A stretch of DNA of 2,037 nt from Escherichia coli (GTDB taxonomy: Bacteria; Pseudomonadota; Gammaproteobacteria; Enterobacterales; Enterobacteriaceae). The notes below the pieces were generated by a model. The model did not search any database. It was not told where the DNA came from and was given only the letters and a program-made list of their open reading frames with translations. Location: the NCBI RefSeq assembly GCF_003334255.1, contig NZ_QOWU01000141.1; one strand, given 5' to 3'. This document shows positions 1 through 846 of the stretch, piece by piece (the stretch's first letter is position 1; each line of letters opens with the position of its first letter). A program made the position numbers and the translations under genes.

Positions 1-846
1 AACCAGATGGACCCGGTGTACACGCCGGCGCGAAAAATCCACCTGTACCACTGCGACCATCGCGGCCTGCCGCTGGCGCTCATCAGCACGGAAGGGGCAA
101 CAGCGTGGTGCGCAGAATATGATGAATGGGGCAACCTGCTGAATGAAGAGAACCCGCATCAGCTGCAGCAGCTTATCCGGCTGCCGGGGCAGCAGTATGA
201 TGAGGAGTCCGGCCTGTATTACAACCGCCACCGCTATTATGACCCGCTGCAGGGGCGATATATCACTCAGGATCCGATTGGACTGAAGGGGGGATGGAAC
301 CTGTATGGATATCAATTGAATCCGATATCAGACATCGACCCCCTGGGTTTATCTATGTGGGAGGATGCAAAATCGGGGGCATGTACTAATGGTCTTTGCG
401 GCACACTATCCGCTATGATAGGTCCAGATAAATTTGATTCTATAGATAGCACCGCATATGACGCCTTAAATAAAATAAATAGCCAATCTATTTGCGAAGA
501 TAAAGAGTTCGCTGGTTTAATATGTAAGGATAATAGTGGCAGATATTTCTCAACAGCACCTAACCGAGGAGAAAGAAAAGGATCATATCCATTCAATAGC
601 CCTTGCCCTAATGGTACTGAGAAAGTATCAGCTTATCATACTCATGGTGCAGATAGTCATGGAGAATATTGGGACGAAATATTTTCAGGTAAAGATGAGA
701 AAATAGTTAAAAGTAAAGATAACAATATCAAGTCATTTTATTTAGGTACGCCCAGTGGTAATTTTAAAGCAATAGATAACCACGGGAAGGAAATAACAAA
801 CAGAAAAGGATTACCTAATGTCTGCAGAGTTCATGGTAATATGTAA
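1..846 (+). CDS. rhsA: Rhs-family polymorphic toxin, C-terminal portion (5' end lies upstream of the window): end of conserved core plus variable C-terminal toxin tip
   Basis: The frame is open from base 1 (aac cag atg...), so the M at 7 is internal. The translation ...[35 protein letters not shown]...DIDPLGL is the hallmark end of the E. coli Rhs core. GC is about 58% in bases 1-60 and about 32% in bases 421-480, the typical core/tip contrast. Stop TAA at 844-846. The rhsA symbol is inferred only from the yibA-like gene downstream; the core is nearly identical among rhs paralogues, so it could be another rhs copy. Confidence 0.9.
352..846 (+). other. Variable Rhs C-terminal toxin domain (Rhs-CT), about 165 aa, function unknown
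   Basis: Everything after DPLGL (codons at 337-351) is AT-rich and not recognisably core. It contains 7 cysteines ([37 protein letters not shown]) and a His-rich patch, [16 protein letters not shown] cannot assign a toxin family from sequence alone. Confidence 0.75.
806..810 (+). promoter_or_regulatory. Shine-Dalgarno-like AAGGA for the immunity ORF, located inside the toxin coding sequence
   Basis: AAGGA with a 7-nt spacer to ATG 818. Confidence 0.5.

Follow-up and report, generated by a model that had tools for sequence, protein, structure and literature searches.

The annotated rhsB-yhhH toxin/immunity junction of Escherichia coli: a conserved 29-nt overlap across which the immunity gene probably initiates from its own Shine-Dalgarno sequence

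We report the computational analysis of the junction between an Rhs toxin gene and its downstream immunity gene in a stretch of Escherichia coli DNA of 2037 nt, referred to throughout as the window, which a sequence search shows to be 100% identical over its whole length to E. coli K-12. The left part of the window holds the 3' end of rhsB (1-846), a reading frame that is open at the left window edge and 100% identical to the K-12 gene, in which Pfam places an RHS match at residues 11-47 (E = 4.3e-16) and a DUF4329 match at residues 148-266. It is followed by yhhH (818-1201), which encodes 127 amino acids, ends in a stop codon at 1199-1201 and carries at residues 60-127 (995-1198) an Imm-NTF2-2 domain (PF15631, E = 3.4e-26, model positions 1-68 of 68). 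Both genes, and all of the features described within them below, lie on the plus strand.

The end of the Rhs core is marked by a DPLGL motif of the PxxxxDPxGL type (337-351), downstream of which lies the AT-rich C-terminal toxin region; past position ~350 of the window the GC content falls from 0.60 to about 0.31-0.38. This region contains the DUF4329/Tox-JAB-2 toxin domain (448-804; PF14220, E = 2e-39, model positions 2-114 of 116), whose sequence shows an HTH motif at 637-645 and, further downstream, an SGKD motif. Zhang et al. (2012, PMC3482391) equated DUF4329 with Tox-JAB-2, whose motif comprises E, H[ST]H, S and D, and listed Imm-NTF2-2 as an immunity partner of Tox-JAB-2. The locus has the make-up of an Rhs polymorphic toxin module, with its core-end motif and shift in composition, its C-terminal toxin domain and its downstream immunity gene of the partner family, and the Pfam and literature assignments (PMC3482391) bear out the toxin/immunity pairing that had been proposed in an earlier reading made from the DNA letters alone, called here the sequence-only reading. 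In the literature Tox-JAB-2/DUF4329 is described as a putative nuclease or RNase (PMC3482391, PMC10469887, bioRxiv 10.1101/2024.03.05.583533). A literature search found no experimental study of RhsB-CT/YhhH, and neither the toxin nor the immunity profile had a meaningful match among PDB sequences.

Downstream of yhhH lies a yibA-like HEAT-repeat gene (1306-1689), broken by an in-frame TAA (1549-1551) and annotated as a pseudogene; in some E. coli strains an IS1 is present in this region (matches H1-H3). The window closes with the start of yhhI (1797-2037), the ISEc1 (ISAs1-family, 'H-repeat') transposase gene, which has a strong AAGGAG upstream at 1786-1791 and which is the H-rpt classically associated with the RhsB element. 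An Rfam scan of the window found no element, and a minus-strand ORF of 43 aa (811-942), with nothing supporting it, was set aside.

The yhhH frame is +1 relative to that of the toxin (818 mod 3 = 2 against 7 mod 3 = 1) and is open from 818 to 1201. Its ATG (818-820) is made by the toxin codons AAT-GTC (N271-V272) and is the first start past an in-frame TAA at 794-796. The Shine-Dalgarno sequence, AAGGA (806-810), falls within the toxin codons K267 (AAA) and G268 (GGA) and is separated from the ATG by a 7-nt spacer (811-817). The rhsB stop codon, TAA (844-846), also provides the third base of yhhH codon C9 and the first two of K10, and in the dual-coding overlap (818-846) toxin codons N271-M279 and the stop thus share their bases with yhhH codons 1-9 and the first two positions of codon 10. 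The sequence-only reading had described exactly this arrangement, a 29-nt out-of-frame overlap with the Shine-Dalgarno sequence and start codon of yhhH inside the last codons of the toxin gene, and on re-checking every one of its positions is correct. The boundaries in RefSeq NC_000913.3 are identical (3623427 for the end of rhsB, 3623399 for the start of yhhH), so that the observation amounts to a rediscovery of existing annotation: the overlap is the rhsB-yhhH junction of E. coli K-12, already annotated and already known. We also considered slippage or frameshifting at a run of seven A residues (845-851) and dismissed it; the run lies past the toxin stop and is not conserved, as the L003, L007, L013, L016 and L018 copies read TAAGAAG.

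Comparison of the overlap in homologous loci had been put forward as a check in the sequence-only reading, and we made it on a set of eight distinct loci that range from near-identical copies to 65% protein identity and include one Salmonella-type copy as well as metagenomic ones. In all eight, AAAGGATT and the ATG are invariant, the toxin TAA lies at +26 from the ATG and the overlap measures 29 nt, an identical register throughout. A scan of genome contigs for further related loci yielded three loci only, which added no diversity. Two of the copies (L010, L011) are 100% identical to yhhH and lie on short contigs of metagenome-assembled genomes assigned to unrelated taxa, Lachnospiraceae and Flavobacterium psychrophilum, and the third locus of the contig scan is an rhsD-ybbC copy in an 'Alistipes' bin; in all three cases the bin has probably been contaminated with E. 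coli DNA. Only the yhhH lineage has the 29-nt overlap.

The sequence-only reading had also held that the overlap constrains the last residues of the toxin, and here the comparison reverses the claim: the toxin tail motif is conserved without the overlap, and it is the N-terminus of YhhH that takes up the substitutions. The motif, GLPNxCR[IV]H, reads GLPNVCRVH in the window, GLPNQCRIH in L024, a locus with a 1-nt overlap, and GLSSVCIPYH in RhsD, where the genes are separated by a 39-nt gap. Sixteen variant alleles were found in the overlap, seven of them synonymous in the toxin and nonsynonymous in the immunity protein, one the reverse, and eight altering both proteins; six of these eight sit in the last three toxin codons. 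The variants at YhhH residues 2-8 (S/F, A/V, E/K/G, F/Y/S, M/I, V/A/I/T and I/V/T) are such as would be expected for the n-region of a signal peptide. Judged by this pattern of substitution, it is mainly on the toxin frame that selection acts in the overlap. Among the third positions of toxin codons between 760 and 843, 18 of 28 vary, and the three that fall in the Shine-Dalgarno sequence and the ATG (807, 810 and 819) are all invariant (hypergeometric P = 0.037), which may be a trace of the immunity-gene signals, a modest one with three synonymous sites and this P value. The toxin residues K-G and N-V account in part for the conservation of AAGGA and of ATG 818.

Residues 1-31 of YhhH (818-910) form a predicted Sec signal peptide, with an n-region ending in KK (residues 10-11), an h-region CVIVSLFVF, a c-region TWA and predicted cleavage before Q32, a call made heuristically from hydropathy and motif. 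The Kyte-Doolittle maximum is 2.75, at residue 17, against 1.61 for a protein starting at M40. The same layout is kept in homologues of 65-72% identity, in which GWA precedes N or D. Further afield, 860 family members were recovered when 1.84 billion representatives were searched with a profile, and an N-terminal hydrophobic segment is present in 38 of the 39 full-length distant members sampled (P0117-P0237), nine of which have lipobox-like motifs; in the paralogue YbbC the signal is of the lipoprotein type, with the lipobox LFAC (L008:1817-1870). Neither proteomic nor localisation data on YhhH turned up in a literature search. From these sequence features we infer that YhhH is an exported immunity protein, and the Imm-NTF2-2 immunity family as a whole appears to be exported.

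Three in-frame ATGs, at 818, 833 and 935, were considered as the start of yhhH, and the Shine-Dalgarno sequence is present only at the first, for which the predicted pairing with the anti-Shine-Dalgarno sequence is -5.4 kcal/mol. A public data set bears on the choice. INRI-seq (PMC9825163) applies retapamulin profiling to synthetic transcripts translated in vitro, which cover -30 to +153 of each gene, and its Table S3 of non-annotated starts lists for yhhH a single, out-of-frame ATG at +23 (89 CPM, four of five replicates, in-vivo Ribo-RET signal 0), with no start at +15 (ATG 833) or at +117 (ATG 935), the latter position being inside the tested transcript. The +23 position corresponds to an ATG-TAA 'start-stop' formed by the toxin codon M279 and the stop (841-846). 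We rejected this as a functional element, the signal being seen in vitro only and the ATG being ACG in L014, GTG in L016 and GTA in L018, and regard the signal as fortuitous initiation where the RNA is A-rich and unstructured. There is no entry for yhhH in the TRAINSPOTTER supplements.

Initiation at the most distant of the three ATGs, M40 (935-937), would give an 88-aa cytoplasmic immunity protein, make the upstream 117 nt non-coding and turn the overlap into an annotation artefact. Long gene overlaps are often mis-annotations, the Pfam immunity domain does not begin before residue 60, and several database entries are truncated to 88 aa. Against this, ATG 935 has no Shine-Dalgarno sequence (+0.9 kcal/mol), is TTG in L004 and L006 and is not among the INRI-seq starts, and the stretch upstream of it behaves as coding sequence. 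Its 39 codons (818-934, 28% GC) are free of stops, as happens in just 2.2% of composition-matched shuffles (P about 0.02), with two and six stops in the other two frames; dN/dS is 0.33-0.59 at YhhH residues 11-39 (dS about 0.75-1.1 in diverged pairs), compared with 0.15-0.28 in the immunity domain; and the indels found in the N-terminal region of intact copies are 3-nt, in-frame ones only. These codons encode the signal peptide whose counterpart is seen in 38 of 39 distant relatives, and because initiation at 935 would remove so conserved an element we regard that start as scarcely credible. The sequence-only reading had named translation from ATG 935 as the finding that would make the overlap irrelevant, and the missing Shine-Dalgarno sequence, the TTG of the L004 lineage and the loss of a selected, family-typical signal peptide all disfavour it.

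A start at M6 (833-835) retains the signal peptide. It would produce a 122-aa precursor with a short, more typical n-region (MVICKK) and a 14-nt overlap, and ATG 818 would in that case arise incidentally from the Asn-Val codons of the toxin. Several observations are in keeping with this: YhhH residues 2-5 vary freely, each change being synonymous in the toxin, and residues 2-8 are without purifying selection of their own; toxin coding largely fixes ATG 818; the toxin third position at 834, the T of this ATG, is invariant too; and some database entries (P0034, P0047) are 122 aa long. It is nevertheless very unlikely, as there is no Shine-Dalgarno sequence at 833 (-2.4 kcal/mol), INRI-seq reports no in-frame +15 start, and the codon is ATA in the L004/L005/L006 lineage, in which the ORF from ATG 818 stays intact. 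ATG 818 is the best-supported start of yhhH and presumably the one that is used; against it counts that the in-vitro signal listed for the transcript in Table S3 falls at ATG 841.

The sequence-only reading took the overlap to point to translational coupling. In this account, ribosomes that end rhsB at the TAA (844-846) either go back 26 nt to ATG 818 or hold the site open for initiation, and synthesis of the immunity protein is tied to that of the toxin. In its favour, rhsB and yhhH run in the same direction, neither promoter nor terminator was detected between them, the register of the overlap is strictly conserved in the eight loci, and in the orphan copies L016-L019 an unrelated ORF fused in frame to a toxin remnant ends at the same TAA. 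There is also a precedent in the 34-nt coat/lysis overlap of phage fr, from which a bidirectional scanning model was derived (Adhin and van Duin 1990, as cited in PMC10666635). The distances speak against it: coupling by termination-reinitiation has been predicted for stop-start distances of -8 to +10 nt, a range that excludes the start at 818, which precedes the stop at 844 by 26 nt; in native E. coli pairs a distance of +14 nt cuts reinitiation by 40-80% and one of +38 nt all but abolishes it; and overlaps of -4, -1 and -8 nt dominate, longer ones being rare (PMC10666635). Nor is there an RBS-occluding structure for a translating ribosome to melt, since the fold of 760-880 (121 nt) has an energy of -16.9 kcal/mol (z = -0.10 against shuffles) with no RBS-masking structure, just a 3-bp hairpin touching the yhhH Shine-Dalgarno sequence. 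Orphan immunity copies keep their initiation region although the toxin ORF is gone, indirect evidence against an obligate dependence on its translation; in one of them, L007, the upstream frame has only 31 codons. Relatives of the same family use quite different junctions, a 39-nt gap with its own Shine-Dalgarno sequence in rhsD-ybbC and a 1-nt overlap in L024, and the Rhs junctions of K-12 are heterogeneous, at +20 (rhsA-yibA), -1 (rhsC-ybfB), +39 (rhsD-ybbC) and -29 nt (rhsB-yhhH). Coupling is thus unsupported at this junction, and we consider it unlikely. A stronger form of the idea, that the overlap is a selected dual-coding element in which the toxin tail doubles as ribosome binding site and start codon and terminating ribosomes move back 26 nt to reinitiate, we consider quite unlikely; backward reinitiation over such a distance would be unusual. 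Were it to operate, it would provide a native example, on a chromosome, of reinitiation far back from the stop, in which immunity output is tied to every completed toxin molecule, and would also account for the ~60 nt of toxin 3' end that is found in all of the orphan immunity cassettes.

The reading that we favour, with a probability of roughly 0.6, is that of an annotated rhsB-yhhH toxin/immunity module in which yhhH starts at ATG 818 by means of its own Shine-Dalgarno sequence, is co-transcribed with rhsB and yields an exported product, with an overlap dominated by the toxin frame. A simple consensus scan of the plus strand found no sigma-70-like promoter or terminator in 1-1400, including the region between rhsB and yhhH, so the two genes are likely to be co-transcribed, most probably on one transcript. 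The conserved codons of the toxin tail would form the initiation signals of yhhH, K-G providing AAAGGA and N-V providing AATGTN, and translation would proceed by ordinary Shine-Dalgarno-directed initiation at an unstructured, A-rich site, independently of the ribosomes that finish rhsB. The overlap would exist because the n-region of the YhhH signal peptide, which is probably dispensable, reaches back into the 3' end of rhsB; the toxin frame would dominate selection there and the N-terminus of YhhH would tolerate the amino acid changes that result. As a consequence, the initiation region of yhhH would be inherited as one piece with the final ~60 nt of rhsB.

Orphan copies of the immunity gene (L007, L016-L019 and L009) retain the Shine-Dalgarno sequence, the ATG and the toxin stop without the toxin gene. 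We suggest that they keep this short remnant of the toxin because their initiation signals are made of its conserved codons, though expression of L018 and L009 is uncertain since both are frameshifted. Two independent orphan lineages lose homology to the toxin at one point, ~58-60 nt upstream of the immunity ATG and just before the very conserved TTTTAAAGCAATAGATAA; the point corresponds to ~757-760 in the window, ~816 in L007, ~1960 in L016-L019 and 2501 in L009, and on this alignment both lineages may have recombined at a common edge of the immunity cassette. In L016-L019 the ORF to which the toxin remnant is fused in frame is a pentapeptide-repeat ORF. The orphan arrays L016-L019 and L009 have an intact yibA-like HEAT gene after the yhhH homologue, and from this gene order yhhH and the HEAT gene seem to travel as a poly-immunity block.

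Several known systems help to place the junction. The closest is rhsD-ybbC of E. coli K-12, which has a toxin of the same family with a similar tail (PGLSSVCIPYHD, up to the stop codon) and an immunity gene directly downstream with an N-terminal export signal; YbbC and YhhH are 56% identical over 96 residues. It differs in having no overlap, with AAGGAG as the Shine-Dalgarno sequence of ybbC within the 39-nt gap, and in its predicted signal, which is of the lipoprotein type (LFAC) where that of YhhH is of the signal peptidase I type (TWA|Q). The canonical -4/-1 coupled pairs (Huber et al. 2019, PMC6728339; PMC10666635) are likewise co-directional and tightly packed, with products that are needed together, and L024, a distant Rhs-DUF4329/Imm-NTF2-2 pair, has just such a TAATG 1-nt overlap; at rhsB-yhhH, by contrast, the stop comes 26 nt after the start, beyond the range of -8 to +10 nt. 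The coat-lysis overlap of phages fr and MS2 is more similar in form, being 34 nt long and out of frame with the downstream start preceding the upstream stop, as far as its description in PMC10666635 goes. Translation of the phage lysis gene is, by that same secondary account, experimentally dependent on termination of coat translation, whereas yhhH, as known from its sequence, has a good Shine-Dalgarno sequence of its own in an unstructured region.

Immunity proteins with a Sec or lipoprotein signal, encoded by genes that adjoin the effector gene, occur in T6SS effector/immunity pairs that act in the periplasm, such as Tse1-Tsi1 and Tae/Tai. The rhsB-yhhH pair resembles these in its adjacent, signal-bearing immunity gene and differs from them in its toxin, Tox-JAB-2 being in the literature only a putative nuclease or RNase.

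For the annotation of such loci, the overlap by itself is weak evidence of translational coupling, and the 127-aa model of YhhH, with its 29-nt overlap, is probably right. For the family, the apparent export of the Imm-NTF2-2 proteins implies a periplasmic site of action, and a periplasmic target, for the uncharacterised Tox-JAB-2/DUF4329 toxins, at present labelled putative nucleases or RNases. This, and the making of the immunity gene's initiation signals from toxin codons, could be of use to those working on polymorphic toxins.
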